43,025 bases of DNA from an uncultured Candidatus Saccharibacteria bacterium (GCA_964512315.1 CAZEIK010000005.1:1-43025); one strand, 5' to 3'. Numbered from the stretch's first letter, positions 9,095 to 35,081 are shown. The notes: generated by a model from the sequence alone, not told the origin. Made by a program: numbers and translations.

Positions 9095-9238
9095 GTGCGC
9101 CCGGTTCCTGGTGGCGCCCACCGCCGGGGCCTGCACCGTCGCCCGGGAACGACGAAACCCCCTCGTCAGAGGGGGTTTCGGCTGGAACTTGTGAAGCGCG
9201 CCCGTAGGGACTCGAACCCCAAACCTTCTGATCCGTAG
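9095..9238 (-). repeat. att-2: partial tRNA-Arg 3' portion plus ~100 bp tRNA-downstream arm (144 bp, 7 mismatches vs 42844-42987)
   Basis: Ungapped alignment with 42844-42987 at a constant offset of 33749. Includes CTACGGATCAGAAGGTTTGGGGTTCGAGTCCCTACGGGCGCG on the minus strand and the terminator hairpin. Confidence 0.85.
9154..9179. terminator. GC-rich hairpin (gaaaccccctc-gtca-gagggggtttc), bidirectional terminator candidate
   Basis: Perfect 11-bp stem with a 4-nt loop, flanked by A/T runs on both strands. Lies between the convergent FG-GAP gene end and the tRNA remnant. Duplicated at 42903-42928. Confidence 0.6.
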
Positions 9239-9240
9239 CC

Positions 9241-19500: not shown

Positions 19501-20214
19501 CGCCGGGGTCTCGTTGCCGAGGACGTCGGAGCGGCCGCAGAACACCGGGGCGCCGTCTGGTGACTCGACCGCCATCGACACCTGGTAGAGCCACGCCTCG
19601 TCCTTGTTGCGGTCCGGCGGCAGCTGATCGTTCACCAGGAACAGCGACACGAGCCATCCATGCGCGAGCCGGGTCGCCTTGCCCCGAACGATCACGTCCG
19701 GCTGCTCGGCGACCGGTGACGCCGGCGTGATCTCCCCGGCCACCACGGGGACGGTCACCTGACCTGACATCGGGTGGCGCTGCCACACCGTCGCCGGCCC
19801 ACCCTCGCCGTCGCCCGCGGCCTCCTTCAGGTACCGCCCCCACGACGCGGTCACGACGAGCTCCGAGGTCCCGTCAGCAACCGTGAAGCTCACCCCGAGG
19901 CTTGACGGGAAGAGCGACGGCTTGGCGGCCACCTCTGTGTCGTCGCTACCTGAGTCATCGGAGACAGCGGTGACCGCCCCGGTCCCCTCCGAGCGCTCGC
20001 GACGCTCAGGATCCAAGGCCAGCGACTGCTTGGGCGCCAACGACCCAGTGATGTACCGCTCGTTCACCCGAGCGCGGCCGGGAAGCTGCTCGAGCTCACC
20101 ACCTGCAGGCCCATGCAGCTCACCGATCACTAGGCCTTCGAGCTCCGCACGCAGCGACCCCGGCGACGGCACCTCGACAACCAAGCCCTCGCCGTCCGGT
20201 TCGGTACCCGTCAT
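16588..20214 (-). CDS. drmA: DISARM DrmA, superfamily-2 DEAD/DEAH-like helicase
   Basis: Walker A FFPTGGGKTEAYLGL. Motif II IIQDELHLISGPLGT. C-terminal helicase motifs ATNMISVGVDVGRLGVM and QATSRVGR. ATGA overlap with the drmMI stop. Confidence 0.85.
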   Translation of the reverse strand: MTGTEPDGEGLVVEVPSPGSLRAELEGLVIGELHGPAGGELEQLPGRARVNERYITGSLAPKQSLALDPERRERSEGTGAVTAVSDDSGSDDTEVAAKPSLFPSSLGVSFTVADGTSELVVTASWGRYLKEAAGDGEGGPATVWQRHPMSGQVTVPVVAGEITPASPVAEQPDVIVRGKATRLAHGWLVSLFLVNDQLPPDRNKDEAWLYQVSMAVESPDGAPVFCGRSDVLGNETPAEIDELALLDLQYRNRVEFAVGHGTATHAEVAAGDVTRAVRIVTTAVPSHEVPLTEAPGPSDPSRSDSVKAALSGVVLDMATLGSLEGSALVAAVSPLVDAYDLWLDEQQVRLDAGMDRLDEHQGSAEAALADARRAADRLRAGVALLEPIGGQETDAAEAFRFANHVMWQQRVHTLASDKRRDDPQIELAAALADVDQSFNRSWRPFQLAFLILNLPSLTEPTHPQRTRDEGLVDLLFFPTGGGKTEAYLGLTAFTLAVRRLQGTVAGFDGRSGGVAVLMRYTLRLLTAQQFERAAALICACEVRRRELIGDDPRWGDEPFRLGMWVGANVAPNRTKDAGYALEEARSAGRRRAAGSSPVQLVTCPWCGTRLDPARDARTDPNRWRTLLFCGDPFGTCPFTDAGSPGEGLPVVTVDEELYRLLPSFIISTADKFAQLPWRGPLHVLFGRVSRRCERHGYRSPDLDTIDPQRPERDSHNRTGPQAGNLPSARTVAVDPLRPPDLIIQDELHLISGPLGTLVGLYETAIDELATWSIEGVDVRPKVVASTATVRRADEQAHALFARGLAVFPTPVLDVSDSFFAKERSLDERAGRRYVGLCAPGLRLKSAEVRVFTAILAAAQRLYDRYGVAADPWMTLVGYFSALRELAGTRRLVDDEVKNAAYRANRRGLGQRSIRSSGVEELTSRVSSGDIRDVLDRLKQRFDPDSDGRPPIDVLLATNMISVGVDVGRLGVMCAVGQPKTTSEYIQATSRVGRSQNGPGLVFTLYNWSRPRDLSHYETFEHYHSTFYRQVEALSVTPFSPRALDRGLSAVLVALARQNPEQPAWNPNEGAQAVTLNSPDLDEIVERIVARAELVTSDIASGDLVRDLLQTRIDRWRAEQGRQGSTLGYAADPKKAIAPLLDVPGIASWGLFTCPWSMRETEPNVNLLIQPSDHSLDDAPAFQLGGGVTTRPARDTIADEEPVTEEVEA

Positions 20215-23200
20215 GGCGCTCCACCTTCATCGCCGAACAGCGCGGGAGACGGCGCAGACACCTTCTTCGCCTTGGAGGGCTTCGTGACCGTGCCGTGGAG
20301 GCCCTGCGCCACCTCGGCCTCGTACCGCTCCCTGTTCAGTTCGAGCAAACGCTCCAGCACCTCCGTCGCTGCTGCGGGCGAGAACGTGTACCGAATGCCT
20401 TGGCCCCGCACCGGATGAAACCCATGGTCCAGATCCAAACCGTGCCAGCCATAGGCGTCTCGCACCACCTCATCGAGATTTCGGTGCAACTCCCGCAACC
20501 GCACGATGCCCGGCGACGCATCCTCTGGGTCATGCACCCGGTTGTAGGTCACCGTCAGCCCCTCATCTCGCACCACCATGAGTTCCGCTCGGTGCTCGTT
20601 CAGGACACGGCCGGCAGTAGCTACGGCTTCGGCCATCGAGGGCTGGGGGAAGGTCTCGAAGACATCAGAAGGCGTGTAGACAGGATCCACCCTCATGGAA
20701 CTGCCATGGCGGAGCACCCAGTGCCAGTGAAGCCCAGAGCTCAACACCCCGAAGTGAAAGTCGTCCTCAAAGGCGAACACGACGAGCTTGTGTGAGAACA
20801 CCTGACGGGGCGCCACGAACGCGGGCAGCTGCAGCTTGCTCGTCTGGCACAAAACAAGCACTCGGCTTGCGCCCTCGATGCGTCGGTACATCTCCATGGT
20901 GGGGCGAGTGAAGCGCCACCAGATCTCCCGCCGGGTTCGGTCCTTGTTCAGCGCACGTTCCGGCTTGACCTTCTCTTCAACGATGGCGAAGCAGTCCGGG
21001 TAGGCACGAGCCCGAGCCTCATCCCAGTCAAGGAAGTTGACCACCCAACGTGGCGCCGTATGCGTGGGGGACGTGTTGAGGTCCTGTCCGCCGAGGTATG
21101 GGAGGAGCACGTCCGCGTTACGTGAGTCCCGATCAATGAGTGCATGCGCCTCCTGAGGGCTCATGGTGAACCCCATCCCCAGAACGAGCGACCCCTGGAA
21201 CGACTTGCCGGCATTGGCCGCGAGTCGCCGTTTCCGCCAGCCCGAGCGAGGCACGGGGTAGAGCATTTCGTCGATGCCCACGACCGTCTCCCCATCAAGG
21301 ACTCGGGCGCCGGAGAACGGTTCGCGCTGAGCCCAGACCTTGGCGATCTCGAGACTGGCGCGACCGGGCCAGGGCGTGGAGGAGACGGCGCGCTGAATCG
21401 TCCAGCCTGCGTCGATCATCTGGGCGAGTCCGACCTCACTTGTGTCGCCTTGGGCGACGGTGTTCGTGGCGAGAAACCCGAACGACGGACCAAGTTGGCC
21501 GGCACGGAGGAGGAAATAGGCAACAAGGTCCGCCGATCCCTTCTTGCGGCCGCCGATCCAGCGAACGAGGTACTCCCGGGCGGTCTCGCCCATAGCGCCA
21601 GTGATCTTCTGGCCGCCGACGAACGGTGGGTTCCCGACGAAGTGGAAGCCCGGTTCGGCTCGGTCGAGGAAAGCCTCGGGGAACTCGAGCGGCCAGTGGA
21701 GGGCGTGCCGCACGGGCGCCTGGTCGGGTCGGCCGGCATTGAGCCACTCCTGGGCCGTGGCCGCCAGTTCGGTGAGGAGCAGCTGGCGAGATGCGCCGTC
21801 GAGGTCCTCGTCGAGCGCAGACGCGACACGCTGCGCAACGACCCGGAGTCGAGCGTCGAGGGCTGCGGGCTTCTGGGCAGACGTCGAGATGGCGGCACCG
21901 CATACGAGGTCAGCGATGATGCGAAGCGCCTGGAGATCGGCATCGGCCTCGGCAGTGAGTCGGGCCTTGTCCTCGGCATCTCGAACGGTCAGAACGCGGA
22001 TCTCAGCAAGACGACGCCGCCGTTCGAGCGCCTGCTTCACGAGCGAGTCGAGGCTGGCGGTCCAGTCGAACAGGCTCTGGTGAAGCCCGCGGCCGGCGGC
22101 GGGGTCAAGGTGGAGCCAGCGAATCTGGTCGAGGTCGGTCACGCCAAGAAGGGCGTCACCGACACGAATGGCGTGGTCGAGAAAGGTGAATGGCCGGTCC
22201 TTAGCCATGGTGGTGAGCCACAGGGAGAGCTTGGCCATCTCGGCGGCGAGCGGGTCGCGGTCAACGCCGTAGAGGCAGCGGTCGGCGACTGCGCGCCGGG
22301 CGGTCAGACGAATCTCATCTGCCAGGCCCTGGGCTTCGGCTGCCTCCTCCGCCGTCCAGGCCTCGACGAGTCGGTCGGCAAGATACCGCCCGGCCGCAAC
22401 GAGGATCGCTCCGCTTCCCACGGCTGGATCGCAGATCTTCAAGTCGAGGAGCTCTGCGGACGATCGGAGCTTCCAGTCCTCGGGGTGGGTCCCGTCCTGG
22501 GGCCCTGGCGAGTAGACGAGGGGTTCGAGGGCGTATCGGGCGACCTCGTCGGCGAGGTCCTTGGTGGTGTACTCGACGCCCCCTTCGCGTCGCGTGGACG
22601 TCTGGGTCACGTAGATGGACCCTTCGAGCATGACGACCGGAAGATCTCGAAGGTCGCGTCGCAGCAGGTGGAGGTAGGGCAGCAGCCGATCGGTGAGGTG
22701 CTGATCGTTGTCGACGGCGGCTGCGAGGAGTTGGCGGTCGTTGTCTCCGGGCGGAGCGTCGAGGAGCCTGGTGAGTTGCTTGTCGGTCTTGCCGGTAGCG
22801 GCCTTCAGCCAGCGGACGAGATCGGCGCGGCCGGTGGCCGCAGCGTGCTCGAGTTCGGCGAGCGGGACCTCGGGTTCGTCACCAGGCTTGCCGACGAGCC
22901 CGAGCGTGGTGGTGTCCACCATGCGGACGGAGTGGTCGAGGAGACCTTCGTACACGTGGCCGATCTGTTCGACCTCGAGCGTGCGGTACGAGAGCTGGCG
23001 GGCCTCCCGCACGCCACCTTCGGTGAACTGGAGGACCTGGAGGCTCTCGAGGATCGCGAGCATCGTGAGGTCATCGACGGGGATCGGTTCCGCGTGGCTC
23101 TGCCGCCAGGGTTCGTCTCCGGTACGGCCTTCGAGGAAGGGGTAGCGGTCGGGGTCGAAGAGCCGGCCGCCGTAGGGCGGGATGCGCAGGGTGTCGTGGG

Positions 23201-24233
23201 TGAGTCCACCGTGGATGGCTCGGAAGAGGGCGAGCACCCGGTACCAGGCCGCGCTGCGTCGTTCGAGGGGCTCCTCGCCATGGAGGTCTCGTTCGGCTTG
23301 GAGTTGGTCTCGCAGGGTGCTGAGGGCATAGGAGCGTGCGTAGAGGTCGTCGTCGAGTGGAAGGAGGTCCTGTTCTTCGGCGTAGAGCAGGAAGACGAGG
23401 CGCATGAGCACGGTGACGGTGCCCTGGTAGATCTCGGTGGGTTCGAGGTCGCGGAGGAGGTCTCCGTTGCGCTCGCGGTTGGCCCGGCTGATCGACGCGA
23501 CGAGGAGCTCGACAGCGGCGCGGACTTGGCGACCGAGCTGGTCGGCGACGATCTCTTGGGCAGTGGCGGACTCGGCGAGGAGCGACTCGATCGTGTCACT
23601 GGGTTGGACGGAGAAGAACCGGCGAGCGGAGAGGAGCGAGGTGAAGGCGTCGAGCACGGCGGCTTCTTCGCTGAACAAGCTGGCGAGGAAGGTCGCCGAT
23701 CCGGGCGGGGCTTCGACTGGTGCCCAAACGAGCCGCCACTGGTTGGCGTCGGTGACGATGGCAAGCGGGACGCCGGTGGCTTGGCAGAGCTTGGCGGCTC
23801 GTTCAGCTGGGGTGGCGGACCAGTGCTCCCCGGGGAGCTTTGTGTCGAGGGCGGTGCCGAGCGGCCACACGCAGACGAGGGCACGGGCCTTCTCTCGGCC
23901 CTCGACAGGTTCGATGAGGATGTGATCGGGGCGCAGCACTGCGTTGTGCTCACCGATGACATGGGTGAGCGTGGCGGGCACTTCGGGACCGGATCGGACC
24001 CGGCCTCCCCAGCCGAGCAGGTCGTGCAGCACCCAGTCGATCCACGCGGTTCGAGCTGCAGGGTCGGTCAGGTCGGCCGGTCGACGGTCTCGGGTGGCTT
24101 GGCGTAGGACAGGGTCGGTGCGGTCGAGTCCGTTGGGGAACACCCGGTTGAGCACCGGGAGGGTGACGAAGCTTCCCGCCGGTTCGACGAGCGAGAGCCA
24201 GTCGGCGTGGCGGTAGGCGACGGCGCGGCTCAT
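20211..24233 (-). CDS. drmMI: DISARM DrmMI, large Eco57I-like N6-adenine DNA methyltransferase
   Basis: SAM motif I ICDPAVGSGAILVAAG and catalytic motif IV FHFVGNPPFVGG (NPPF). ATG 24233 overlaps the drmD stop (ATGA). The upstream 127 codons of ORF 20211..24614 are Arg-rich overlap with drmD. Confidence 0.85.
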   Translation of the reverse strand: MSRAVAYRHADWLSLVEPAGSFVTLPVLNRVFPNGLDRTDPVLRQATRDRRPADLTDPAARTAWIDWVLHDLLGWGGRVRSGPEVPATLTHVIGEHNAVLRPDHILIEPVEGREKARALVCVWPLGTALDTKLPGEHWSATPAERAAKLCQATGVPLAIVTDANQWRLVWAPVEAPPGSATFLASLFSEEAAVLDAFTSLLSARRFFSVQPSDTIESLLAESATAQEIVADQLGRQVRAAVELLVASISRANRERNGDLLRDLEPTEIYQGTVTVLMRLVFLLYAEEQDLLPLDDDLYARSYALSTLRDQLQAERDLHGEEPLERRSAAWYRVLALFRAIHGGLTHDTLRIPPYGGRLFDPDRYPFLEGRTGDEPWRQSHAEPIPVDDLTMLAILESLQVLQFTEGGVREARQLSYRTLEVEQIGHVYEGLLDHSVRMVDTTTLGLVGKPGDEPEVPLAELEHAAATGRADLVRWLKAATGKTDKQLTRLLDAPPGDNDRQLLAAAVDNDQHLTDRLLPYLHLLRRDLRDLPVVMLEGSIYVTQTSTRREGGVEYTTKDLADEVARYALEPLVYSPGPQDGTHPEDWKLRSSAELLDLKICDPAVGSGAILVAAGRYLADRLVEAWTAEEAAEAQGLADEIRLTARRAVADRCLYGVDRDPLAAEMAKLSLWLTTMAKDRPFTFLDHAIRVGDALLGVTDLDQIRWLHLDPAAGRGLHQSLFDWTASLDSLVKQALERRRRLAEIRVLTVRDAEDKARLTAEADADLQALRIIADLVCGAAISTSAQKPAALDARLRVVAQRVASALDEDLDGASRQLLLTELAATAQEWLNAGRPDQAPVRHALHWPLEFPEAFLDRAEPGFHFVGNPPFVGGQKITGAMGETAREYLVRWIGGRKKGSADLVAYFLLRAGQLGPSFGFLATNTVAQGDTSEVGLAQMIDAGWTIQRAVSSTPWPGRASLEIAKVWAQREPFSGARVLDGETVVGIDEMLYPVPRSGWRKRRLAANAGKSFQGSLVLGMGFTMSPQEAHALIDRDSRNADVLLPYLGGQDLNTSPTHTAPRWVVNFLDWDEARARAYPDCFAIVEEKVKPERALNKDRTRREIWWRFTRPTMEMYRRIEGASRVLVLCQTSKLQLPAFVAPRQVFSHKLVVFAFEDDFHFGVLSSGLHWHWVLRHGSSMRVDPVYTPSDVFETFPQPSMAEAVATAGRVLNEHRAELMVVRDEGLTVTYNRVHDPEDASPGIVRLRELHRNLDEVVRDAYGWHGLDLDHGFHPVRGQGIRYTFSPAAATEVLERLLELNRERYEAEVAQGLHGTVTKPSKAKKVSAPSPALFGDEGGAP

Positions 24234-27200
24234 CGGATGCCCCCGGCGGGGACCAGGAACTCGACGGCGGCAGGGAACAGGCGAGGTGTCGGTGCTGCGT
24301 AGCGAGCGCGGACGGCGGCGGCTTCTTGGTCGATCTCGTCGGGGATCTCGTCGAGGCGTCGCTGGAGGGCGTCGACGTTGCGTTCGAGCTGGTCTCGTTC
24401 GGCGTGGTCGAAGTCGAGGGTGAGCTGGGCCATGTCTTCGCCCCGGATCCGGCGGAGCTCGCTGTCGATGCTGTCGCGCAGGTCGGTGAGCACCGCAGTG
24501 ATGGCGTCGATGTCGGCGGCCTCGCGTTCGCCGAGGCGACGCATGAGTGACTGGAGCCGCTCGTCTGAGCGGGCTTCGAGGGAGGCGTAGACGCTGTCGG
24601 CGATCCGGGGCCAAAGCGCTGCGATCTGGGCCTCGGCCGCCGCACCTGCGGGCTCGTAGGTGGCGGCGTCGAGGGCGTCGTTGGTTTGGCCGATGTTCCA
24701 GCGGGCGTAGCTGCCTGATCTGACCCGCCCGCCGGCGGTGATGACCTCTTCGTGAAGGCGGCGTCCGTCGCCGCCCACAAGGACGAGTCGGGCGTAGGCG
24801 ACGACACCCAGTTCGTCGAGGTCGGTGCCACCGATACGCGCCGATACGCGGCCCATCCGGACATCGGCGCCTGACGACCAGATCTCGGCGCGGAGGGTCC
24901 GCATGGCTTGGGCGACGAGCCGGTGGTTCAGGTGCGCCAGGAGAACGTCATCGTGGTCTGCCGCGACGTCATGGTCGAAGGTGATGGGACGGCGAACCTC
25001 GGCGATGGGGTCGTAGAGGTCCATGGTCGTGGTGCGCCACGACCGGGTGAGCGGTGGCACGTCGAACACGTCGACCTCGCCAGTGGGTCGGGCGAGGGTG
25101 GTGGGCCGAAGCGGCGCTTGGTGGGCGAGCTCGAGGGCCGTATTGGTGACGCGCTCGACGTTGGCCGGGTGGAGGTGCAACTCGGCGATGCTTTCGGCGA
25201 GCTGGTCGTGGAGGTCAGCGATGCGCTGCCGCAGGTCTCGCTCGAGCCGGTTGAGTGCCCGGGCAGCCTTGTTGCGGTCGGAAGTGGCGGTCCTGGTCGG
25301 GTCCGCTGTGCGGCCGAGCATGGCGGCTTCGACCTCAGCGGCGAGCACGGGGCCGGCGGTGCCGAGGTCGTCTCGGATGGTGTCGACCTTGCGGGCGATG
25401 AGCGACAGGAACGCAAGGTCGGCTTCGAGGGTGCCGTCTGTGACCCCAGCCCACTTCTGGGGGGTCGCGTCGTGCCATCCGGTACCGACGAAATGGTGGA
25501 TCATCACGTCGGGAGCGGGCTGGCCGTGGCGGTCGACTCGGCCGTTGCGCTGTTCGAGCTTGGTGGGCGAGAACGGGATCTCGACGTGCACGAGCCGGTG
25601 GCAGTGCCGTTGCAGGTCGATGCCTTCGCTGGCGGCGTCGGTGGCGAGCAGGATCCGCACCGGGCGCAGCGACGGGTCATGTTGGAACTCGGCCTTGATC
25701 CGTTCGCGTGCATCGGTGTCCATGCCGCCGTAGAGGAGCGCGAGGCGGTCGCCGCCGAGGCCGCGGGCTTCGAGCAGCTGTTGCAGGTACCGCTGGGTGG
25801 TGCGGTACTCGGTGAACACGATGATGCGTTCGTCGTTCCAGGTGCGCTTGCCGCCACGCTTGGTCGGGCAGCAGGTGTCCTCAATCCACTGGAGGAGCCG
25901 TTCGGTCTTGGCGTCGGGCCGTCCTCGGTTGGCGTTCGCCCAGACCGTCATGCGGTCGAGGAGCTCGAGCTGCTCGGCATCCGCTGCGCCTGTGGCGACT
26001 GCGGCTGCCGCGAGGGCGGCTTCCTCGGCCTCGGTTGCAGCGTCCTCGTCGTCGAAGTCCTCTTCGAGGCGGTCGAAGAGGGTGTCGACTTCGGTCGAGC
26101 GCGCGGGGCCAGCTGCGGCGAGGGTGCGGCGGTGCAGTTCGAGCGTGGAGGCGAACGCCGCCGGCGACGAGAAGAGACGCTTCTTGAGGAGCAGGGTGAC
26201 CAGGTCGGCGGTCCCCTTCGCACCCTGCGCCTTGACGGCGGTTCGTCGAAGCTGCGCGTATCGGTTCAAGTCGGCGTGGACGGCGACTTCGTCGGGCGGG
26301 TAGGTGACCTCGAGGGGTACGACTCGTCGGGCCGCGAACCGTGGAGTGCCGTCGGCGTTGACGATGTCGCTCTTGAGCCGACGGACGAGCGCTGAGGCCA
26401 GGGTCGCTGGCTTCGGTTCTACGCCGCGGGCGAAGCGCTGCGGGTCGAGGAGCTCGAGCAGCGCCGTGAACGACTCGGTGTAGCCGTTGTGCGGGGTGGC
26501 AGAGAGGAACAGCCGGTGCTCGAAGTGGGGGGCGATCTCGCGGATCGCCTTGGTCCGCTGGGAGTCCACGGCGTAGCGGCCCCGTCCCGACGGTGCGCAC
26601 TGGTGGACCTCGTCGATCACGAGCAGGTCGAAGCGCCGCGGGTACGCGTGCGCGTCAGCCGGGAGCACCTCCCGCAGCAGGCCCATGGCCCGTGGGCGCT
26701 TGAGCCAGTCCATGGAGACGATCAGACGTGGGAACACCCGGAACGGGTTGGCTCCCATCCCACGGGTGCGGCGCAGGTCTCGCAGCAGTTCGGCGTTGAC
26801 CACCCGGAAGTCGAGCCCGAACTTCTCGGCCATCTCGGACTGCCACTTGAGGCACAGCGAGGCGGGGCAGACGATCATCACCGTCCGGGCCCGATGCCGC
26901 AGCAGCAGCTCTTGGACGACGAGGCCCGCTTCGATGGTCTTGCCGAGGCCGACGTCGTCGGCCACCAAGAGGTTCACGCGGGGCATGCGCAGCGCCCGGA
27001 CCACGGGGTCGAGCTGGTAGTCCTCGATCTGGATGCCCGACCGGAACGGTGCTTGCAGGGCTTTGGGGTCCGCTGAGGCGACGGCACCCCAGCGGACGGC
27101 GTCGAGGAACGCAGCGAGGGTGGATGGGTCGTCGAAGCCTCCGTCGCGGGGCACTGGCAGGGTGGCGGTCTCCAACACGGCTGCGCCGGGCTCGACCTCC

Positions 27201-27406
27201 CAGATGACGTCGAGGTCGTCGGTGGCGCCATCGTCCTCGACCGAGATCAGCGATACCAGGTGCTGCACACCAGCGTCCGAGCCCGAGAGCTCGTCGGTCG
27301 GTAGCGACCCTGCGGACACCTCGGCGACGATCCAGTGGCGGTCTCGAACGAGCACCAGTTGGCCACGCTCCGGGACCGCCGTTCCCAAGCTCTCGACCAC
27401 CGTCAC
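24230..27406 (-). CDS. drmD: DISARM DrmD, SNF2-family helicase/ATPase
   Basis: SNF2 motifs LLVADDVGLGKTIEAG, LLVIDEVHQC, and C-terminal LLATDAASEGIDLQ...QRNGRVDRHGQ. GTG 27406 is preferred because GGGGAGGG lies 6 nt upstream. The ORF stays open to ATG 27484. Confidence 0.85.
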   Translation of the reverse strand: MTVVESLGTAVPERGQLVLVRDRHWIVAEVSAGSLPTDELSGSDAGVQHLVSLISVEDDGATDDLDVIWEVEPGAAVLETATLPVPRDGGFDDPSTLAAFLDAVRWGAVASADPKALQAPFRSGIQIEDYQLDPVVRALRMPRVNLLVADDVGLGKTIEAGLVVQELLLRHRARTVMIVCPASLCLKWQSEMAEKFGLDFRVVNAELLRDLRRTRGMGANPFRVFPRLIVSMDWLKRPRAMGLLREVLPADAHAYPRRFDLLVIDEVHQCAPSGRGRYAVDSQRTKAIREIAPHFEHRLFLSATPHNGYTESFTALLELLDPQRFARGVEPKPATLASALVRRLKSDIVNADGTPRFAARRVVPLEVTYPPDEVAVHADLNRYAQLRRTAVKAQGAKGTADLVTLLLKKRLFSSPAAFASTLELHRRTLAAAGPARSTEVDTLFDRLEEDFDDEDAATEAEEAALAAAAVATGAADAEQLELLDRMTVWANANRGRPDAKTERLLQWIEDTCCPTKRGGKRTWNDERIIVFTEYRTTQRYLQQLLEARGLGGDRLALLYGGMDTDARERIKAEFQHDPSLRPVRILLATDAASEGIDLQRHCHRLVHVEIPFSPTKLEQRNGRVDRHGQPAPDVMIHHFVGTGWHDATPQKWAGVTDGTLEADLAFLSLIARKVDTIRDDLGTAGPVLAAEVEAAMLGRTADPTRTATSDRNKAARALNRLERDLRQRIADLHDQLAESIAELHLHPANVERVTNTALELAHQAPLRPTTLARPTGEVDVFDVPPLTRSWRTTTMDLYDPIAEVRRPITFDHDVAADHDDVLLAHLNHRLVAQAMRTLRAEIWSSGADVRMGRVSARIGGTDLDELGVVAYARLVLVGGDGRRLHEEVITAGGRVRSGSYARWNIGQTNDALDAATYEPAGAAAEAQIAALWPRIADSVYASLEARSDERLQSLMRRLGEREAADIDAITAVLTDLRDSIDSELRRIRGEDMAQLTLDFDHAERDQLERNVDALQRRLDEIPDEIDQEAAAVRARYAAPTPRLFPAAVEFLVPAGGIR

Positions 27407-27571
27407 TGACGCCCTCCCCAGCCGGCCGCGTGGGCCGGTGCCCTCTGCGCTCGGTACCGAGCGATACCTGACGGTAGCCCGCATCGACGGCCGGTCGGGG
27501 GCCCAACGTGTCAGTTCTCGGCGTCCGGCGCTCGATCTGCTTTCGAGCTGGTCTGGGGCCTGGTGACCTGG

Positions 27572-27858: not shown

Positions 27859-28605
27859 TCAGCCTGTCGAGCTTGCGGGCATCTCGTCCCAGGTGCGGCC
27901 TTCGAGCTCTCGTCCTCCGGCCTTGGCGGTGTGTCCGCCCCACTGCTTGAAGAAGAAGGAGACCCCGGAAGATACGCACTGGTCGCGTAGTTCGCTCACC
28001 CACGGCAGCTGCATCGGTCGGGCTCCGGGCCCGGACTCGCCCCCAGCGATCACCCAGTCGATCCCGGTGAGGTCAAGGTCCCCGACTGAAGCGAGCAGCG
28101 GCTCGCACGATAGGAACCGCACTGCCGCTGGTACCTGTCGGAGATGGTCGATCCGGAACCGGTACCTCGCTGACTCGACGCTGACCCCCATCCAAAGATT
28201 CGGGGGCCACACGAGCTCATCGCTCACCTCGAGGAGTCGCTTCGAGCGCTTGGTCAGCACCTGGTACTTGTGCTGCGGCGTGTCCGCGATCACCGCAAAC
28301 ACTTGCTGGATGAACTCGGTCGGAACAGCTGCGTGGAAGAGGTCGCTCATCGAGTTGACGAAGATGGTCCGTGGTTGACGCCATCGCCTTGGTTGGTCGA
28401 GGGCACCTGGGTGGACCGTGAGCCCGAAGCCCGGTCCGCTGGTTCGCGGATCCCCATCGGCTTGGTACTTCGCAACCCCCATGGCCTTGAGGCGCTTCGA
28501 CAAGGTGAGGGCGTAGCAGTTGTCGCAACCCGGGGAGGTGCGATCGCACCCGGTGGTGGGGTTCCAGGTCGCTTCAGTCCATTCGATGGAGCTGTTGTCG
28601 GCCAT
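27859..28605 (-). CDS. DUF5131 / phage Gp37-Gp68 family three-Cys-motif protein
   Basis: N-terminus SIEWTEATWNPTTGCDRTSPGCDNCYA is the hallmark of PF07505 (Cx6CxxC). 248 aa, the typical size. Confidence 0.8.
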   Translation of the reverse strand: MADNSSIEWTEATWNPTTGCDRTSPGCDNCYALTLSKRLKAMGVAKYQADGDPRTSGPGFGLTVHPGALDQPRRWRQPRTIFVNSMSDLFHAAVPTEFIQQVFAVIADTPQHKYQVLTKRSKRLLEVSDELVWPPNLWMGVSVESARYRFRIDHLRQVPAAVRFLSCEPLLASVGDLDLTGIDWVIAGGESGPGARPMQLPWVSELRDQCVSSGVSFFFKQWGGHTAKAGGRELEGRTWDEMPASSTG

Positions 28606-28639
28606 CTGAAGCCTCCTGTGGTCGCGCGTATGTTCGATG

Positions 28640-29764
28640 CTAGGGGTTCGGAGGGAACCGCACTACGACTTGATCGGGGAAGGTGAAGCGCCTGTTCTGT
28701 CCTGAGACTGCTTCGATGACGCCTTCTCGTTGCAGATGGGCGAGCGCGCCCTTCTTGTAGTGGCTGGCACTGAACGGGGTGTTGACGAGTACGAACCGCT
28801 CGATGGCGGGAACGGCCGCATCCTTGCCAGCGAAGTGCGACAGCAGCGCCTGGCGAAGGGGTTCGAGGTCCGGCTCGGCTTCGAAGAGCACTTCGACACC
28901 TGCCAGCCGGTCCGAGAAGCGACCACCCTCGATGGGGTCGAGCTTCCACATGGCGTCCTTCATGACCTTCAGCCCTGTGAGGTTCCGGGTGCCGTAGAAC
29001 AGCGAGTAGGTGGTGTGACCCGACATGCCGATCATCTCGAAGCTCTGAACGAACTCGAGTCCCGCTCCCTCAGTCAGCTGGCGGGCGTAGAGATCATGGA
29101 GAAACGCCTTGCGCTCCGCTGGAGCCAGGCCGTCTGCGTCCCGGTACTCCTCGGTCCCGAAGAGGTCAGAGAGGTGAACATGGATGGACTCTTGCGGATG
29201 GGTGATCCACCTGTTCAACGAGTCGTACATGAAGTTGAAGAAGACCTCACACTTCGGGTACCGGGCGATGCGTTCGAAGATGGAGAACGGCACACCCTTG
29301 AACCCGAAGGGATCAACGAACGCGAAGGTCGGAGCGAGGTTCTTGCCCGCCTCCTCCAGCGAGGACAGCAGGCCGTCTGCCACCTCGGCGAACTCTCCGT
29401 TGACCATCTCGACTCTGACGTTCTCCGGCTGACCACCGTGGGCGGCCCAGAAGCCAGCGACCTGCTCCCCGAGACTGGCGAAGCGCTCTGGGTCTTGTTC
29501 GACGAAGAAGAGCACGAACTCGGTGTGGCTCAACCTGTCGAACATGTGATGCGACACGAGGGTCTCGAGCGCGATGAGCGGTGAGCCGTTCTCGCCAGCG
29601 CTGTAGACGCCGGGCCCAGCGAAGCCGTCAAGGAACACGACGCGCGGGTTGAATCCGCCGTGGGTGAGGATGGGGAACCATCCCCCGAGGTACCGCCGGA
29701 GGATCTCGTGCTTGGCCACCGTGTGTGGGTCAAGGGCCCACTTAGTGGTCTTCGGTACCGCCAT
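28640..29764 (-). CDS. tcmP: Three-Cys-motif partner protein TcmP-like (probable Rossmann-fold SAM methyltransferase)
   Basis: TKWALDPHTVAKHEILRRYLGGWFPIL N-terminus. VFLDGFAGPGVY is MTase motif I-like. FAFVDPFGFKG is DPPY/DPPF-type motif IV-like. Lies immediately upstream of the PF07505 gene. GGGAGAG RBS before ATG 29764. Confidence 0.7.
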   Translation of the reverse strand: MAVPKTTKWALDPHTVAKHEILRRYLGGWFPILTHGGFNPRVVFLDGFAGPGVYSAGENGSPLIALETLVSHHMFDRLSHTEFVLFFVEQDPERFASLGEQVAGFWAAHGGQPENVRVEMVNGEFAEVADGLLSSLEEAGKNLAPTFAFVDPFGFKGVPFSIFERIARYPKCEVFFNFMYDSLNRWITHPQESIHVHLSDLFGTEEYRDADGLAPAERKAFLHDLYARQLTEGAGLEFVQSFEMIGMSGHTTYSLFYGTRNLTGLKVMKDAMWKLDPIEGGRFSDRLAGVEVLFEAEPDLEPLRQALLSHFAGKDAAVPAIERFVLVNTPFSASHYKKGALAHLQREGVIEAVSGQNRRFTFPDQVVVRFPPNP

Positions 29765-29876
29765 TGTTGTTCTCTCCCGCCCCGCCGGCTCTCCCGGCGT
29801 CGAATGTACTGGGCGCGGGCCATCGCAGCGGCCGACTTCAGGGCGCCTCGGCACGGTTCACCGGACCGCAACCCGT

Positions 29877-31733
29877 TCAGATGGAGCCGCTCTCGTTGTC
29901 GGTGAGCCGCGCCATGAGTTGACGGCTGGGGGAGGGGGTGCGGGTGTAGTCGGGCCGGTTGTAGCTCATGAGGACGTCGTAGGACTTGTGGCCGGTGATC
30001 TGGGCGATCTCGGCGGCGCTGAAGCCGAGGGCGAACATGCTGGTGGTGAACCCGGCACGGGTGCTGTGGGCGCCGAAGCGGGTGGGGTCGAGGCCGGCTC
30101 GGGCGGCGAGGCGTTGAATGAGGTTGCAGACGGCGTCGCCGGAGAGGGGGGCGAGTTCGACTGTGCCCGACAGGGTGGGCGTGAGGCTTCGCCGGTTGCC
30201 GTCGGGGTCGATCACCTCGGGTTGGTCGTGGCGGTTGATCGGGAAGAACACCGGTGCGTTCGGGAGGTGGGTGACGGGGTCCGCGCCGACGAGCGCGGTG
30301 ACCTGTTCGCGTAGGCGTTCGAGGCTTGCGACCGGGCAGGGGATGCGGTCGGGGTCCGGCGATCGTTCGAGGATCCAGGTGGTGGGGCCGACGCTCGGGT
30401 CTGCGGTCGGGTTGGTCTTGGTGGGTCCGGGTGTCCAGCTGATGGTGTCTTCTTGGAAGTCGAACTGGCCCCAGCGGGCGTCGACGAGGTTCACGCGGCG
30501 GTGCGCGGTGAAGAACGCAGTGGTGAGGATGCTCTCGTCGCGGGCGGCGGTCAGCGGTTTGGTCGGGCTGCAACTGCTCCACAGCCGGGTGAGTTCGTGC
30601 GCGCTGTAGTCGTGTGGGTCCGGGCAGCGCTTCCCGTCGGCAACCGGTAGGCCGTGGGCGGTGAGGACGCGTCGGATGAGTTGCACGATGCCGGGACGGG
30701 TCATGGCGAGACGGGCAGTCGGTTCGGGTTCGGGTGCTGGTTCGAGCCAGAACTGTCCGGGGTTGAGCACGTCAGGTATCGGTGGCGGGGTTGCGGGGCT
30801 GGCGCGGCGGGTGTCAGGGGTGCGCTGCTCGTTGGAGGTGGTGAAGCCCCCTGCGGCGAAGGGGCCGCGGCCGGTGCGTGCCCGCCACTTTGCGATGGCG
30901 TCGATGGCTCGTGGGTCTTCGATGACGAGCAGCCTGTGCCCTGCGGTGATGTGCTCGGTGCCGTCTTGAGCGGTGAAGTCGGTCCAGTCGAGTCCGGCGA
31001 TGGTGGTTGGGGTCAGTTCGGCGGCCCACACCGCCATGACGGCGCGGTCGCGGAGGTCGTCGTTGGTGTTGCGGATGACGTCGATGAAGGTGATGAGCAG
31101 GTCGATGTCGATGGCGGCCTTGCGGTTGGTGGGTGCGTTGCCGAAGCGGTTGCGGATGCCCTTGAGGATCGACTTCACGGCGGCGGTTGGTCGGAGGGGT
31201 TCTTGGTCGGCTGCTTGACGGACGCGGTCGACGGCGCTGACGAACACGTCGAGGGTGCTGGGCGAGACGGTTCCTCGGAGGTATTCGCCGTTGGGTCCGA
31301 GGAGCAGTTGGTCGTCCTCGGTTGCGCACGCGGCCCAGAGGCAGAACCCCGCGAACAGGACGGGTGTGAGCTCGTGGGGGTGGTTGCCGGTGGCAAGGCA
31401 CCAGAACACGACTTGGCGCCACGCGGACCGGTAGGTGGCGTGGGTGCGCTCGGCGAGAGAGGCTTCGGCGAACTCGGCGACGGCTTCGGCGAGGGGGCCG
31501 AGCTCAGCGCGCAGCGCTGCCTCGTCGGCGAACACGAACGGTGCCCACACGAGGTGCGCGAGGGCGACCTTCCCGTCGGCGGGTAGCGGGTCGGGGTCGA
31601 ACCCGTGCCGTTGACGGAACTGGTCGTAGAGCTCCGCTTCTTGTTCGACGCGGGTGTTGGCGTGGCGTTGCGAGCGGGTCGGTGGGTGCGGTGCCGGGTC
31701 GGGGAACGCGATGGGGGCGGGCAGGGCAGTCAT
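29877..31733 (-). CDS. Large tyrosine recombinase (618 aa)
   Basis: C-terminal catalytic motifs ...HRRVNLVDARW (R), FGAHSTRAGF (HxxR), GHKSYDVLMSYNRPDY (H...Y). A second SAM-like/core-binding-like segment lies N-terminally (THATYRSAWRQVVFW). AGGAAGG RBS before ATG 31733. Confidence 0.8.
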   Translation of the reverse strand: MTALPAPIAFPDPAPHPPTRSQRHANTRVEQEAELYDQFRQRHGFDPDPLPADGKVALAHLVWAPFVFADEAALRAELGPLAEAVAEFAEASLAERTHATYRSAWRQVVFWCLATGNHPHELTPVLFAGFCLWAACATEDDQLLLGPNGEYLRGTVSPSTLDVFVSAVDRVRQAADQEPLRPTAAVKSILKGIRNRFGNAPTNRKAAIDIDLLITFIDVIRNTNDDLRDRAVMAVWAAELTPTTIAGLDWTDFTAQDGTEHITAGHRLLVIEDPRAIDAIAKWRARTGRGPFAAGGFTTSNEQRTPDTRRASPATPPPIPDVLNPGQFWLEPAPEPEPTARLAMTRPGIVQLIRRVLTAHGLPVADGKRCPDPHDYSAHELTRLWSSCSPTKPLTAARDESILTTAFFTAHRRVNLVDARWGQFDFQEDTISWTPGPTKTNPTADPSVGPTTWILERSPDPDRIPCPVASLERLREQVTALVGADPVTHLPNAPVFFPINRHDQPEVIDPDGNRRSLTPTLSGTVELAPLSGDAVCNLIQRLAARAGLDPTRFGAHSTRAGFTTSMFALGFSAAEIAQITGHKSYDVLMSYNRPDYTRTPSPSRQLMARLTDNESGSI

Positions 31734-31969
31734 GTTCGATGCACCTTCCTGAGAGACGTGGATGGGACGCTCTCGCCGGGTGCTGTGCCAGCGACGGGCT
31801 GCGCTGCACACGCTGCGACGCAACTCTTGGCTCGGCAAAGGCTGATATGACCCGGTGAGAGTTGCCCCTGGACGGTGCGGGTGCAGGTCACGGGTGCAAC
31901 CAGGTCCGCCGCCGGTGACGGTGAGCGCGGCGGTTGCGCCGGTGTCGGCGGGTCGGACGGTGCCCGGCT

Positions 31970-33733
31970 ATGGCTTCCACCCGCTCCCGCAAGAAGAGGA
32001 AACCGGCCGCTGCATGCCCGGTCGTCATGGACACTGGCCGTCCGTGCGGCAGGGACGTGCGGTGCTGGAACCTGTGCGACAAGCACTACCAGCGTCTGCG
32101 CCGCGGGTGCTCACCGGAGGAGATGGCTGCGACCAGCCTGCGTCGACGCACCCCGTGCCGAGTCGTCGAGCAGGCGACCGGTCAGCCGTGCCCGCGTCTC
32201 CACAAGGGGCTGGGCATGTGCTCGGTGCATCTGAGCCGCTTCCACCAGGGCTGGCCCGAGGAGGATCTGGGTCTGCCACCCCACGCGCGCCGCAAGCAGG
32301 CGCAGCGCGGCGACGACCGTGCTGCGGTCGGCAAGAAGGACCAGAGCTCGCGCTACGGGGCCGTCGAGCCAGTCGTGCTCGACGGGTTCGCAGCTATTGA
32401 CGCCGAGATCATGGCGTTCATCACGAGCTATGAGGACCGCGCCGGCATCACCGCAGCGCGACAGGTTGCGGTCCGGCAGTACGAGCAGTGGTGCAAGGAG
32501 GTGGGTCTGACCCCGTTCGAGCACACCGCGACGGCCTTGACAGCGTTCGTCCGGTGGTTGACGCAGCCGGCCGGGGACCGACCGGGCTTCACGTCCGAGA
32601 CGATGGTTCGGAAGCTGAAGGTGATCAGCGACGAGTTCCGCCGGCTCACCGGTGATGACCCGCATCAGCTGCCGGTGCTCGCCGAAGCGGTAGAAGCTGC
32701 GAAGCAGCAGTCACGTCCGCTCGCTCACGGAGACCGGGAGGGCCGAGCTGGCCGGGCCGGGCCGGTGCATCCGTTCGGGCTGGCAGAGATGGAGCGGCTC
32801 GTCGGGACCTGCCCGGGGGTGCATGACGATGTCATCGCGTTGCGGGCGCTGTGGCGGATCGCCGGGGTCGTCGGATGGGAGAACCTGGAGGCGGCCGAGG
32901 TGATCCCCGTCGATGCGCACCGGGTGGAGGTCATCTCGCTGGGCACAGTCCATGTGCTCCCCTTGGGTTCCCCGGAGCGTTGGCACGCGCCGTGGCTGTC
33001 ACCGGCTGCGTCGATCGCTGCCGCAGTCGCTGCGTTTGGGACGGGCCGGCCGATCGACACCTGGCCAGGCCCACGGAACGTCGAGGGCATCCGACGGCAA
33101 GTCGAGCAACGGTTCTTGGAGCACGGCCGGATCGATCACGTCGCCTACGGGGACATGGCCGCGAGCGACTTCCGGATGGCTGCGGCACTTGACCCGCCCT
33201 ACCTGACGTGGCTGAGGACTCGCGCCGGGATGCTGGTGGCGTGGCGAAGCGCGCTTGCGTTGGCCGAAGCACGCCAGCTGCAGTTCGGCGTCAACCTGAC
33301 CCTCGACCAGCGGGGGTGGCAGGTCGTTCCTCCCCGCAGACGCACCCGGGCCAACCTGCACCCCAGGCCTCAAGGGCTGATGCCGGCAACCGACCCCGTC
33401 CTGTGCGCGACCACTGCACTCGACGAGTGGCTCGACGCCGGAGCCATGCAGTTCGGCGACCACCTCCTGTGTGCAGCACCCCTGGATCGCCTCGACCGAA
33501 CCGCACCAAGCCGCAGCCGCTCCGAGCGCAACCAGCTCCAGGCGATGCTCGCCGCGGCCGAACTCGACCAACGCCTCTACACGTGGAGATCGTTCCGCCT
33601 CGGTTACGAGACCCTCGCACAGGGTGACGCCACCTCCGCCCAGATCGCCACCGCGACGGGCTCGACCGATCTCGCCCAGCCCCGAACCGACGTACGACGA
33701 CGCAAGGACAACGACGGTGAGCAAGCCACGTAA
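31970..33733 (+). CDS. Tyrosine-recombinase-like protein with N-terminal double Cys/His zinc-ribbon; catalytic Tyr not evident
   Basis: Two copies of C..V...TG.PC.......C..H..R...G occur at the N-terminus. Core-binding-like ITAARQVAVRQYEQWCKEVGLTPFEHTATALTAFVRWL. C-terminal YTWRSFRLGY occupies the HxxR position, but no GH...Y follows. Confidence 0.65.
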   Translation: MASTRSRKKRKPAAACPVVMDTGRPCGRDVRCWNLCDKHYQRLRRGCSPEEMAATSLRRRTPCRVVEQATGQPCPRLHKGLGMCSVHLSRFHQGWPEEDLGLPPHARRKQAQRGDDRAAVGKKDQSSRYGAVEPVVLDGFAAIDAEIMAFITSYEDRAGITAARQVAVRQYEQWCKEVGLTPFEHTATALTAFVRWLTQPAGDRPGFTSETMVRKLKVISDEFRRLTGDDPHQLPVLAEAVEAAKQQSRPLAHGDREGRAGRAGPVHPFGLAEMERLVGTCPGVHDDVIALRALWRIAGVVGWENLEAAEVIPVDAHRVEVISLGTVHVLPLGSPERWHAPWLSPAASIAAAVAAFGTGRPIDTWPGPRNVEGIRRQVEQRFLEHGRIDHVAYGDMAASDFRMAAALDPPYLTWLRTRAGMLVAWRSALALAEARQLQFGVNLTLDQRGWQVVPPRRRTRANLHPRPQGLMPATDPVLCATTALDEWLDAGAMQFGDHLLCAAPLDRLDRTAPSRSRSERNQLQAMLAAAELDQRLYTWRSFRLGYETLAQGDATSAQIATATGSTDLAQPRTDVRRRKDNDGEQAT

Positions 33734-35081
33734 GGACCAGCCAGCCCCCACATCGGCCGTGAGCCTCGAGGACGCCCTCAACGACACTGCCGCCGCAGCC
33801 CTCAAGGACAGTTCGCGCAGGACCTACGACAAACAGACGCGTGTCTACGAACGGTTCTGCACCGCCAACAACATCGATCCATGGCCCGCCCAAGACATGG
33901 CGATCACCCGGTTCCTCCACGTTCACCGCAATCGTCACAGCCCGCCGACGTCCGAGTTGTACGTCAGCGCCATCCGTCGCCATCACCTGGACGCAGGATT
34001 GCCGCCTCCCGATGCCACCCTCACCAGCCGGTGGCTGCGGGCTTGGCGCCACACGAGTGAGCACGAGCCGCCAACACCGATCGACCCGCTGCTCCCTGAA
34101 GATCTCCTGACCATCGCCGGTGCTGCGACCAACGTGGCGGTCAGCGAACGAACCCTCCTGCAACGCGCCGCACTCGGCGTCGCTCGGGCCGGGAAGCTCG
34201 TTGTGCCGCAGCTGTCAGCGATCACCCGCCACGACGTTGAGGTCGCCGACGCCATCGTGACGGTTCGTCTCGACGATGGTGAACTGGTTCTTCCTCGCCG
34301 CGAACCGTTCGACAGTGGGAGCCTCGTTGCGCAGCTCCTCGAGGTGGCGCCCAGCTCGCGGCTTCATCTGTTCGGAGCGCAGCCCCAGCTGCGACAGTCG
34401 CTGCTGGCCTCTGCGAAACGGGCGGGCCTGGAGGCACAGTGGCGCGTTCGACCTCACGTCGGCTCTGGGCTCAGCGAATCGGACCATCGGTGGATGATCG
34501 CGATGTGCGACCCGACGTTGCTCACTGACCTGCGCACGGTCACCTGGACGTTGGTCGCCTGCAGCCAGGCCTTCCGCAACGACGAGCTGTCGCGCCTCGA
34601 CCTCGAGACCGTCGTCGTGACGCCCACCGGCTTCGACCTGATGCTCGGCGCCAGCAAGGGGGACCCAACCGGTCGTCGACCGGTCTGGCACCTCAACCAC
34701 ACTCCGGACCCCGATGGCGGGGGGCAGTGCGCCGTCACCTGCGGGGCTTGCAGCCTCGGGCGGTGGGTGTCCGTCCTGCACCATGCGAAGGGCCTCACGA
34801 CTGGCCCGGTGTTCCCGACCTTCAAGCCCTCGAGCGACGGGCGCCTCACCAACGGCGTGGCCACCTACCACCTGCGACGGCTTGCTGGCCGGCTCGACAT
34901 CGCAGAAGGCCGACGCCTGGGGTCTCGAAGCCCACGGATCGGGACGGTGACCGCGATGCACCTCAACGGCGAAGATCTCGCTGCGATGGCCGCGGTCACA
35001 CGGCACACGCAGTTCCGGACGCTTCTCCACTACATGCGCATCGTGGACCCATGGCGGCAGACGTGGCAGATCCCGGCCTGA
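33717..35081 (+). CDS. Tyrosine recombinase (454 aa)
   Basis: GTG 33717 has AAGGA upstream and overlaps the preceding gene by 17 nt. Motifs RRTYDKQTRVYERFC (core-binding), AFRNDELSRL (R), SRSPRIGTVTAM (xxR), TRHTQFRTLLHYMRI (H...Y). Confidence 0.75.
   Translation: MSKPRKDQPAPTSAVSLEDALNDTAAAALKDSSRRTYDKQTRVYERFCTANNIDPWPAQDMAITRFLHVHRNRHSPPTSELYVSAIRRHHLDAGLPPPDATLTSRWLRAWRHTSEHEPPTPIDPLLPEDLLTIAGAATNVAVSERTLLQRAALGVARAGKLVVPQLSAITRHDVEVADAIVTVRLDDGELVLPRREPFDSGSLVAQLLEVAPSSRLHLFGAQPQLRQSLLASAKRAGLEAQWRVRPHVGSGLSESDHRWMIAMCDPTLLTDLRTVTWTLVACSQAFRNDELSRLDLETVVVTPTGFDLMLGASKGDPTGRRPVWHLNHTPDPDGGGQCAVTCGACSLGRWVSVLHHAKGLTTGPVFPTFKPSSDGRLTNGVATYHLRRLAGRLDIAEGRRLGSRSPRIGTVTAMHLNGEDLAAMAAVTRHTQFRTLLHYMRIVDPWRQTWQIPA

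Follow-up and report, generated by a model that had tools for sequence, protein, structure and literature searches.

A 43,025-nt stretch of DNA from an uncultured Candidatus Saccharibacteria bacterium (GCA_964512315.1 CAZEIK010000005.1:1-43025, hereafter the window), which has a high, actinobacterial-type GC content (63-77%), contains three adjacent genes, A, B and C, whose products belong to the tyrosine recombinase (YR) fold, and of which the middle one, B, encodes a protein that has lost the catalytic residues of this family. The interpretation favoured here, with about even confidence, is that the trio is a rare actinobacterial multi-recombinase module, similar to the GInt islands and SE elements, that travels with defence cargo and employs the dead B protein as a non-catalytic partner. 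An earlier note on this DNA had described three clustered recombinase-like genes of 618, 587 and 454 codons, the last two overlapping by 17 nt, and this was borne out by the open reading frames (ORFs), by profile searches, and by an orthologous second trio in Blastococcus mobilis DSM 44272.

Pfam recognized A as a Phage_integrase (PF00589; 2.9e-9), B and C had no Pfam or NCBIfam match at E <= 1, and the C-terminus of C resembled the catalytic end of A (BLASTP, 2e-7). With a catalytic-domain profile built from six canonical ~330-aa Cre-like relatives, hmmsearch located the domain in B at residues 402-584 (5.3e-20), in C (3.2e-15), and in A as two pieces, 394-478 and 523-594 (3.2e-16 and 1.4e-4), the catalytic domain of A being interrupted by an insertion of ~45 aa. 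Queried exhaustively with phmmer, 1.84 billion representatives contained no more than 33 matches to B at E <= 0.001, some to the N-terminal zinc ribbons described below and others to residues ~400-580; of the 19 matches scanned, 10 hit Phage_integrase at E <= 0.01, and 8 of these passed the gathering score. B is the one member of the trio for which a structure model was made. The AlphaFold2 model, obtained from a 33-row alignment, has a pLDDT of 74.2 (a single-sequence model, pLDDT 36.9, was set aside); its best Foldseek matches were at least 20 Cre chains (best 1e-5, target TM 0.69), and VIA-align superimposed B 145-576 on residues 25-326 of phage P1 Cre, the best structural match to B, with Z 19.8 and an rmsd of 4.3 A over 284 residues. 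Because of these profile, BLASTP, Foldseek and VIA-align results, A, B and C are regarded as Cre-like proteins of the tyrosine recombinase fold.

The catalytic columns were read from a MAFFT alignment of 27 catalytic domains, and the six-residue sets are listed in Table 1. A complete set was found in A; in C the first histidine is replaced by arginine, a change also seen in the Blastococcus protein C' (Bm_C) and in G657_1 and G579_2, members of two recombinase pairs described below, with the entire set of C recurring in Bm_C and G657_1. The columns of B read A-R-R-R-S-D, and its tail contains no tyrosine. The earlier proposal that the middle protein lacks the catalytic tyrosine was right, and understated; B has lost the nucleophile and three other catalytic residues, the first arginine among them. 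Because these residues are missing, B is a member of the fold and not an enzyme of this kind; A and C appear to retain working active sites and, judged by residues, are likely the subunits that would cut and rejoin DNA.

All three proteins share an insert of 130-180 aa that separates the core-binding from the catalytic domain. By hhalign, the insert of the A clade is related to the N-terminal half of the catalytic domain (96.1%, E 3.5e-9, 79 columns), as is that of the B clade (93.1%, 3.3e-7), and the C-clade insert gave no such match (0.2%); in G657_1 the duplicated half-domain was visible to plain hmmsearch (4.7e-9). A consists, in order, of a core-binding domain of SAM-like type, half a catalytic domain in degenerate form (~aa 200-383), and the catalytic domain proper (aa 384-606). 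The "two recombinase-like halves" earlier noticed in the 618-aa protein have a basis insofar as the insert matches a catalytic half, but in A and B alike it is a degenerate duplicated half catalytic domain without catalytic residues, not a second recombinase.

Although dead as an enzyme, B is maintained. Each protein of the trio has one database twin at 94-96% identity, and the three twins, P0004 (A), P0001 (B) and P0002 (C), lie together on one 22,685-nt contig. B differs from P0001 at 31 of 587 positions, with no insertion or deletion, and the changes in the catalytic domain amount to 6/186 in B (3.2%), 5/235 in A and 8/196 in C, so that the dead catalytic domain is the most conserved part of B in this comparison and is conserved like those of A and C. 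Beyond the twin, five of the ten full-length members of the B clade (W_B of the window, P0008, P0012, P0015 and P0025) lack both the tyrosine and the first arginine; all five carry ribbons and keep the fold-defining columns. The tyrosine is retained in P0010, P0020/P0040, P0028 and P0017/Bm_B. The nearest members to W_B on the tree are intact, and more than one loss of catalysis in the clade is therefore suggested. A rule that ribbons always accompany catalytic loss was considered and rejected, as P0010 and P0040 combine ribbons with an intact set. With half of its members active and half not, and with loss found mostly together with N-terminal ribbon arrays, the B clade forms a natural comparison series in which the idea of an adaptor subunit becomes directly testable.

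The two N-terminal zinc ribbons that had been noticed in B were confirmed; they occupy aa 16-42 and 63-90, with a pLDDT of 81-92 in the model. Homologous arrays occur in at least 20 other proteins, and a weak match was obtained to the N-terminus of the phrog_5351 HNH endonuclease (0.0037). In tandem form the ~47-aa CCCH unit is present in 11 copies in P0009 (an Mrr-nuclease/helicase, with the array at its C-terminus), in 6 in P0019, and in 5 each in P0007 and P0021; P0013 and P0014 also belong to the ribbon-bearing phmmer matches of B, and the sole Pfam match for the arrays is DUF5763, in P0009. The array looks like a modular nucleic-acid-reading unit, and the repeat, which reaches 11 copies in nucleases and helicases of defence type, may be one that reads DNA.

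A scan of one genome per species (185,579 species; degenerate pattern, three-row B alignment) revealed a single related locus, that of Blastococcus mobilis, where A' (590 aa), B' (579 aa) and C' (457 aa) are all co-directional in the order A'-B'-C'. All three match Phage_integrase at E <= 0.01, C' with 25.3 bits, below the gathering score of 27.1. A matches A' (Bm_A) at 7e-32 and C matches C' over its full length at 1e-31; identities between the two trios are 27-34%, and the overlap of the B and C genes is kept (17 nt in the window, 20 nt in Blastococcus). A maximum-likelihood tree was built from 32 catalytic domains, leaving out P0011 (incomplete), RitB2, and the near-duplicates P0001, P0002, P0004, P0039 and P0040. 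It recovered an A clade (W_A, P0005, Bm_A, P0006; support 99/95), a B clade (W_B, Bm_B, P0017, P0010, P0008, P0015, P0012, P0025, P0020, P0028; 95/90), and a more weakly supported C clade (W_C, Bm_C, G579_2; 84/77). Together with the canonical ~330-aa Cre-like proteins these clades make up a group of 26 rows (88/94), outside of which fall RitA/RitA2, RitB and RitC/RitC2 of plasmid pHG1 and the tRNA-side integrase of the window; several rows are long-branched, and deep placements are uncertain. Because the same A-B-C order, the same clades and the B/C overlap recur in Blastococcus, the three genes are considered one inherited unit, and the phylogeny points to an old unit of three paralogues that is distinct from the recombinase-in-trio (RIT) elements.

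The family is very rare, and beyond the twins each protein has few relatives. A genome-contig scan with the A alignment gave no locus, a C profile drew no match from 100 relatives or from a phylum-wide sample of 400 genomes, metagenome scans at JGI with the B alignment and with P0020 were empty, and so were viral contig scans with the B and C alignments. Among 72,556 plasmids (PLSDB, tblastn), B had no match, and A and C had only partial matches to single ~330-aa integrases, none with at least 80% coverage; one plasmid relative adjoins a Tn3-family transposase. In the order of Blastococcus, weaker C-like matches were found in 18 of 300 other genomes, and of the four of these that were opened, two had single ~330-aa recombinases and two had pairs. 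In one pair (G579:C7 442-8653), two large Cre-like recombinases, the second belonging to the C clade, are divergent from a complete Lamassu system (LmuA/LmuB/LmuC). In the other (G657:C16 6901-9860), two overlapping 549-aa Cre-like paralogues are sisters on the tree, the second being degenerate (D-R-T-R-M-H), and an AriA/PtuA-like ATPase lies nearby. DNA near-identical to that of the window turned up in 18 runs, from wastewater or activated sludge, that belong to 9 studies dated 2015-2025, a list in which 9 rows are possible sources of this DNA and not all are independent.

Rarity of this kind (a single locus among 185,579 species genomes, and none among the 100 relatives or the 400 genomes of the phylum sample) could be taken, together with the lost catalytic residues of B and the failure to find element ends, to mean that the trio is a decaying remnant, either of integrases from separate insertions left at an old junction or of a dead element in which B is becoming a pseudogene. 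This is considered improbable. The same three paralogues stand in the same order in a distant genome despite only 27-34% identity, and the B and C genes overlap there too; none of the three frames is broken, either in the window or in the 94-96% twin; the dead catalytic domain of B is as conserved as the catalytic domains of A and C; five independent non-catalytic full-length members of the B clade preserve the fold-defining columns; and near-identical DNA has recurred over a decade of sampling (the 18 runs above, with their 9 possible source rows). The idea of the earlier note that the trio marks the junction of formerly independent elements likewise found no support in the form of a pile-up of unrelated integrases, the trio having been inherited as a unit.

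Pairing of B with C, whose genes overlap in both genomes, was approached by complex prediction. C together with B residues 138-587 gave 0.63 (median of three runs), as compared with 0.00 for the best of three controls, and passed a score mark that is reached by 116 of 157 solved complexes and by 2 of 215 mismatched pairs. The runs agreed in at least 86% of contacts, with a partner pLDDT of at least 72. In the predicted complex the core-binding helices of B rest on those of C, and the C-terminal tail of C (445-454) on the catalytic domain of B (546-570). The predicted interface is of the Cre type, and a resemblance to Cre synapses of solved structure may therefore explain the pass.

The trio was found with DISARM genes in both genomes, on two otherwise different islands. 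In the window, the island is bounded by a 148-nt direct repeat consisting of the 3' part of a tRNA-Arg with its terminator, and the distance between the trio and the island ends is ~20 kb on one side and 8 kb on the other. The Blastococcus trio is inside a 46.6-kb island (contig G498:C47) that has entered an acyl-CoA dehydrogenase gene at its 3' end, between 56-nt direct repeats (2193-2248 and 48895-48950; 52/56 identical) that restore the last 22 codons of that gene; its integrase gene is at the left end (2367-3881; Phage_integrase 1e-15), drmD, drmMI, drmA and drmB lie 6.6 kb upstream of A', and PD-Lambda-3_B and Wadjet lie beyond C'. A BLASTP comparison of 22 ORFs of the window with 27 of Blastococcus gave matches for the trio and the four DISARM genes (the latter at 42-48% identity) and for nothing else. 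No BLASTP match was obtained between the integrases of the two islands, and the insertion targets differ, tRNA-Arg in the one case and the acyl-CoA dehydrogenase 3' end in the other; because each island has its own integrase at its own attachment site, the trio is not the island integrase. In the window PADLOC identified DrmD (E = 0), DrmMI (E = 0), DrmA (6.5e-300) and DrmB (2e-76; drmB at 14723-16618).

The phylum sample yielded DrmB homologues in 2 of 400 other genomes (36% and 30% identity), and the order of Blastococcus in 44 of 300 other genomes, ~16 of which, at 44-47%, are as close to the window DrmB as is the Blastococcus mobilis copy. These ~16 genomes led to rejection of the idea that the window and Blastococcus DISARM systems are mutual closest relatives; the identity pattern fits with horizontal arrival of the window DISARM block. 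As DISARM is common in the order (~15% per genome), the link between trio and DISARM amounts to one independent case, and the association is suggestive.

Cre and single Cre-like recombinases act alone as homotetramers, in contrast to a trio of three diverged paralogues, each with a 130-180-aa insert and one of them inactive. The nearest sequence relatives of all three clades are nevertheless single ~330-aa Cre-like proteins (SAM-like N-domain plus Phage_integrase). Prokaryotic DNA transposons with tyrosine recombinases have been arranged in five groups, ICE/IMEs, SEs, GInts, RITs and Tn554-related elements, and the last four have more than one protein of the YR fold (PMC10214605). The comparison with GInts and SEs is one of published descriptions.

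GInts (ginABCD) have three YR-fold genes, one of which, ginC, encodes a protein without catalytic residues, and carry variable cargo (Bardaji et al. 2017, PMC5385486). All gin genes are needed for recombination, and Phyre2 models of GinA, GinB and GinC had Cre, XerD or XerC as closest templates (PMC5385486). The trio differs from GInts in several ways. GInts have a small fourth gene, ginD (HLH), for which the trio has no counterpart; the gin genes are co-directional at the 5' end of their island by attL, whereas the trio is mid-island with A divergent and with a separate island integrase; the inactive member is last in GInts and in the middle of the trio; and the published account places GInts in Proteobacteria, Verrucomicrobia, Bacteroidetes and Firmicutes, not in Actinobacteria. 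SEs (strand-biased circularizing integrative elements; intA-tfp-intB-srap) have a catalytic YR, a non-catalytic YR-fold protein (Tfp) and a second catalytic YR (Nonaka et al. 2023, PMC10214605), an order matched by A-B-C in Blastococcus and by the inactive B of the window, where A is inverted. SEs also have one ordinary-sized and one large recombinase, and hitch-hike inside other mobile elements (PMC10214605). They differ in having srap as fourth gene, in being confined to Gammaproteobacteria in that description, and in having defined ends with 6-bp footprints (PMC10214605); the trio has no fourth gene, no ends that could be found, and zinc ribbons on B. GinC and Tfp, both of the YR fold without catalytic residues, are required for or linked to recombination (PMC5385486, PMC10214605).

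It had been said in the earlier note that the trio recalls RIT elements but differs from them, and both parts of this statement held up. RITs (ritABC) are likewise three paralogous YR genes of distinct families, inherited as a trio and often found on genomic islands (Van Houdt et al. 2012, PMC3414803), so that three adjacent YR genes with overlapping B and C might simply be an ordinary RIT element. That can hardly be the case. RIT genes are co-directional with overlaps of 4-8 bp, their products have 315-410 aa and all keep the tyrosine, and the elements end in terminal inverted repeats (PMC3414803, PMC10214605), whereas here A is divergent, the overlap is 17 nt, B has no tyrosine, and no terminal inverted repeats were found. 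When the Rit proteins of one plasmid, pHG1, were compared (314-412 aa, as against 454-618 aa for the trio), the BLASTP matches of RitA, RitB and RitC were confined to 72 residues in the C-terminal part of A (2e-9 to 3e-5), with none to B or C, and on the tree these proteins fall outside the group that holds the trio. RitA carries a pair of core-binding domains (PMC8138268), as opposed to the duplicated half catalytic domain of A and B.

The Tn554-related pairs of Actinobacteria share with the trio an actinobacterial host, unusually long YRs, and the use of several recombinases (PMC3414803). They are, however, pairs of a long TBSSR (611-828 aa) and one of ~350 aa, with or without TnpC, and the long member has an N-terminal extension of more than 400 aa with no recognisable domain (PMC3414803). 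Such pairs are common on actinobacterial plasmids (PMC3414803), whereas A, B and C had partial matches or none among the 72,556 plasmids, a set in which the presence of the named example plasmids is unchecked. A search of full-text literature on inactive or triple tyrosine recombinases and on DISARM drmMI found no description of the A-B-C module. In sum, the trio shares the logic of GInts and SEs, and differs in its lack of a fourth gene, its mid-island position, its occurrence in Actinobacteria, its larger proteins, the half-domain, the ribbons, and relatives with an active middle member.

Under the favoured reading, A and C would be the subunits that cut and rejoin DNA, and B, by analogy with GinC in GInt islands and Tfp in SE elements, would be a non-catalytic subunit for DNA binding and assembly, pairing with C and probably also with A in a heteromeric complex. 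The module would most likely belong to an element that is nested or hitch-hikes, or to a system for moving cassettes, and defence genes would travel along with it; in both genomes its companion is DISARM, and related recombinase pairs also adjoin defence genes (Lamassu in G579, the AriA/PtuA-like ATPase in G657). A role in moving DISARM or other defence cargo is the most likely reading. Gene structure, orthology, the loss of residues, the fold, constraint on B and the trio-plus-DISARM content common to both islands are established, and heteromer formation, DNA targeting by the ribbons, and mobility are inferred. A more ambitious version, tentative and on the whole doubtful, is that the trio represents an undescribed actinobacterial class of element in which B, through its zinc-ribbon-bearing form, picks the DNA target for A and C, whole defence systems are moved between islands with unrelated integrases of their own, with DISARM as ancestral cargo, and the B clade has caught the step from a RIT-like organization of three enzymes to a GInt- or SE-like one of two enzymes and an adaptor, apparently more than once. 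How several tyrosine recombinases cooperate, and what their dead members do, is an open question for RIT, GInt, SE and Tn554 elements, and as of 2023 neither RITs nor GInts had been made to transpose again under laboratory conditions (PMC10214605). The present family extends such modules to Actinobacteria and suggests one route by which large defence systems such as DISARM could pass between unrelated genomic islands.

A number of results weigh against the module interpretation. The true trio is found in only two genomes, and in one of these B' keeps five of six catalytic residues including the tyrosine, so inactivity of B is not a fixed feature of the module. The complex prediction cannot separate a specific B-C contact from generic contacts between YRs. 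Neither genome has, after C, a small co-directional gene like those for GinD, Srap or TnpC. Long repeats flanking the trio (29.8-35.1 kb) or the trio with DISARM (10.7-35.1 kb), which the earlier note had proposed to look for, were not found, in either inverted or direct orientation, by window-wide and local repeat scans and self-BLASTN, and inverted repeats around the trio were limited to chance-level matches of 70-80%. A scan for lox-like sites (12-nt arms, 6-8-nt spacer) found 34, as compared with 12-23 in five crude shuffles, but no repeated site and none paired or flanking the trio. The A/B spacers of the window and Blastococcus share no conserved motif or word of at least 10 nt. Contigs of two independent activated-sludge studies tile 28.3-36.4 kb colinearly and bridge every junction; these come from three run records, of which X13 and X14 gave identical pieces, and leave room for rare forms. 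No trustworthy circular or inverted form or rearranged joint was present among them, apparent joints with sides of 20-46 nt at 88% likeness having been treated as cross-matches from other organisms, and stretches lacking cover having been given no weight. Finally, none of the 44 DrmB-bearing genomes has a linked trio-like match, and the five of them that also have a weaker C-like match have it on another contig in every case. The DrmB contigs of G104 and G381, at 8.6 and 5.8 kb, were too short to reveal linkage. DISARM therefore does not need the trio, and the linkage of the two could be chance clustering in defence islands. The earlier suggestion of a nested unit that moves the DISARM block has indirect support, in that the trio and the four DISARM genes are the sole genes common to the two islands.

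Some of the same observations bear on another proposal, that the trio is a local DNA switch or regulator of neighbouring defence genes, either by inversion of the drmMI/PglX type or with B as a repressor like YopR or MrpR. The B model does resemble the structures of YopR, MrpR and SroF (Z 11.4-12.1, VIA-align), which are non-catalytic repressors. The neighbour conserved between the two loci is DISARM; A, which faces away from B and C in the window, is co-directional with them in Blastococcus; and gene-altering programmed inversions on class 1 DISARM drmMI, usually with recombinase genes nearby, have been published (PMC9881135). The proposal is nonetheless thought unlikely. No inverted repeats were detected on drmMI or nearby genes at either locus, nor any silent partial copy of drmMI (self-BLASTN, and tblastn with each DrmMI, in the window and the Blastococcus contig); metagenome contigs of two studies display a single arrangement; DrmB occurs without a linked trio in 44 of 300 genomes of the Blastococcus order; and two intact recombinases with a third partner exceed the needs of a simple switch.

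The organization of the locus is summarized in Table 1. At their maximum the frames extend to 29877..31838(-) for A (653 aa from a TTG; 618 aa from the ATG at 31733), to 31934..33733(+) for B (599 aa from a TTG; 587 aa from the ATG at 31970), and to 33471..35081(+) for C (no more than 536 aa; 454 aa with the GTG at 33717 as start), and the starts adopted match those of the near-identical twins. The GC3 values of the A, B and C frames (0.84, 0.82 and 0.79) are typical of coding sequence in the window. B and C overlap at 33717-33733. The spacer between A and B probably holds the promoters of both genes and may possibly be a recombinase binding region; it has no internal inverted repeat. A scan for sigma-70-like promoters that included the spacer found none, and a terminator scan gave 3 terminator-like sites, with 2.0 expected. 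The trio is tightly packed, with a TcmP-like gene 19 nt away on one side and an Eco29kI-like gene 9 nt away on the other; the gene following C (35091-35981, minus strand) is convergent, with no small co-directional ORF 3' of C.

Table 1. Positions of the recombinase trio and of associated features in the window
Feature	Position	Strand	Remarks
Gene A, tyrosine recombinase	29877-31733	-	618 aa; catalytic set (R1-K-H1-R2-H2-Y) R-K-H-R-H-Y, complete
A/B divergent intergenic spacer	31734..31969	.	236 nt
Gene B, pseudo-recombinase	31970-33733	+	587 aa; catalytic set A-R-R-R-S-D, only second Arg kept, no nucleophile
Two CCCH zinc ribbons of B	32015..32239	+	aa 16-42 and 63-90, ~47 aa apart (regex)
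Gene C, tyrosine recombinase	33717-35081	+	454 aa; GTG start; catalytic set R-K-R-R-H-Y, H1 replaced by R
PDC-M30 candidate defence pair (DUF5131 protein + TcmP-like)	27859..29857	-	directly downstream of A
Class 1 DISARM drmD, drmMI, drmA, drmB	14723..27571	-	co-directional with A
Left direct repeat of tRNA-Arg island (tRNA-Arg 3' part + terminator)	9091..9238	.	94.6% over 148 nt
Right repeat copy of tRNA-Arg island	42840-42987	.	148-nt repeat
Island integrase adjoining tRNA-Arg	40754-42796	-	phrog_1 integrase 1.4e-14
Intact tRNA-Arg	42945-43019	-	

The candidate defence pair between A and drmD was identified by PADLOC as PDC-M30B/M41B (2.4e-111) and PDC-M30A (2.9e-65), with Pfam DUF5131 at 4.2e-101; its TcmP-like member has a methyltransferase fold and a GMT-wHTH domain. 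Just inside the left repeat of the island is an rve-family (IS3-like) transposase gene (9485-10507), and an HNH_5 endonuclease gene lies at 10785-12077. The 3' end of the tRNA-Arg is present in three copies (12-261, 9196-9445 and 42945-42989), the first two of which are joined by a 250-nt repeat (98.4%), with 12-56 being 93% identical to the tRNA; the first 9.2 kb of the window, with genes for FG-GAP repeat proteins and two LuxR/AAA regulators, could therefore represent another island that entered the same tRNA in tandem. Diverged direct repeats at 6900-8750, with a spacing of 135-276 nt, lie inside the FG-GAP genes and are protein repeat units, not mobile DNA.

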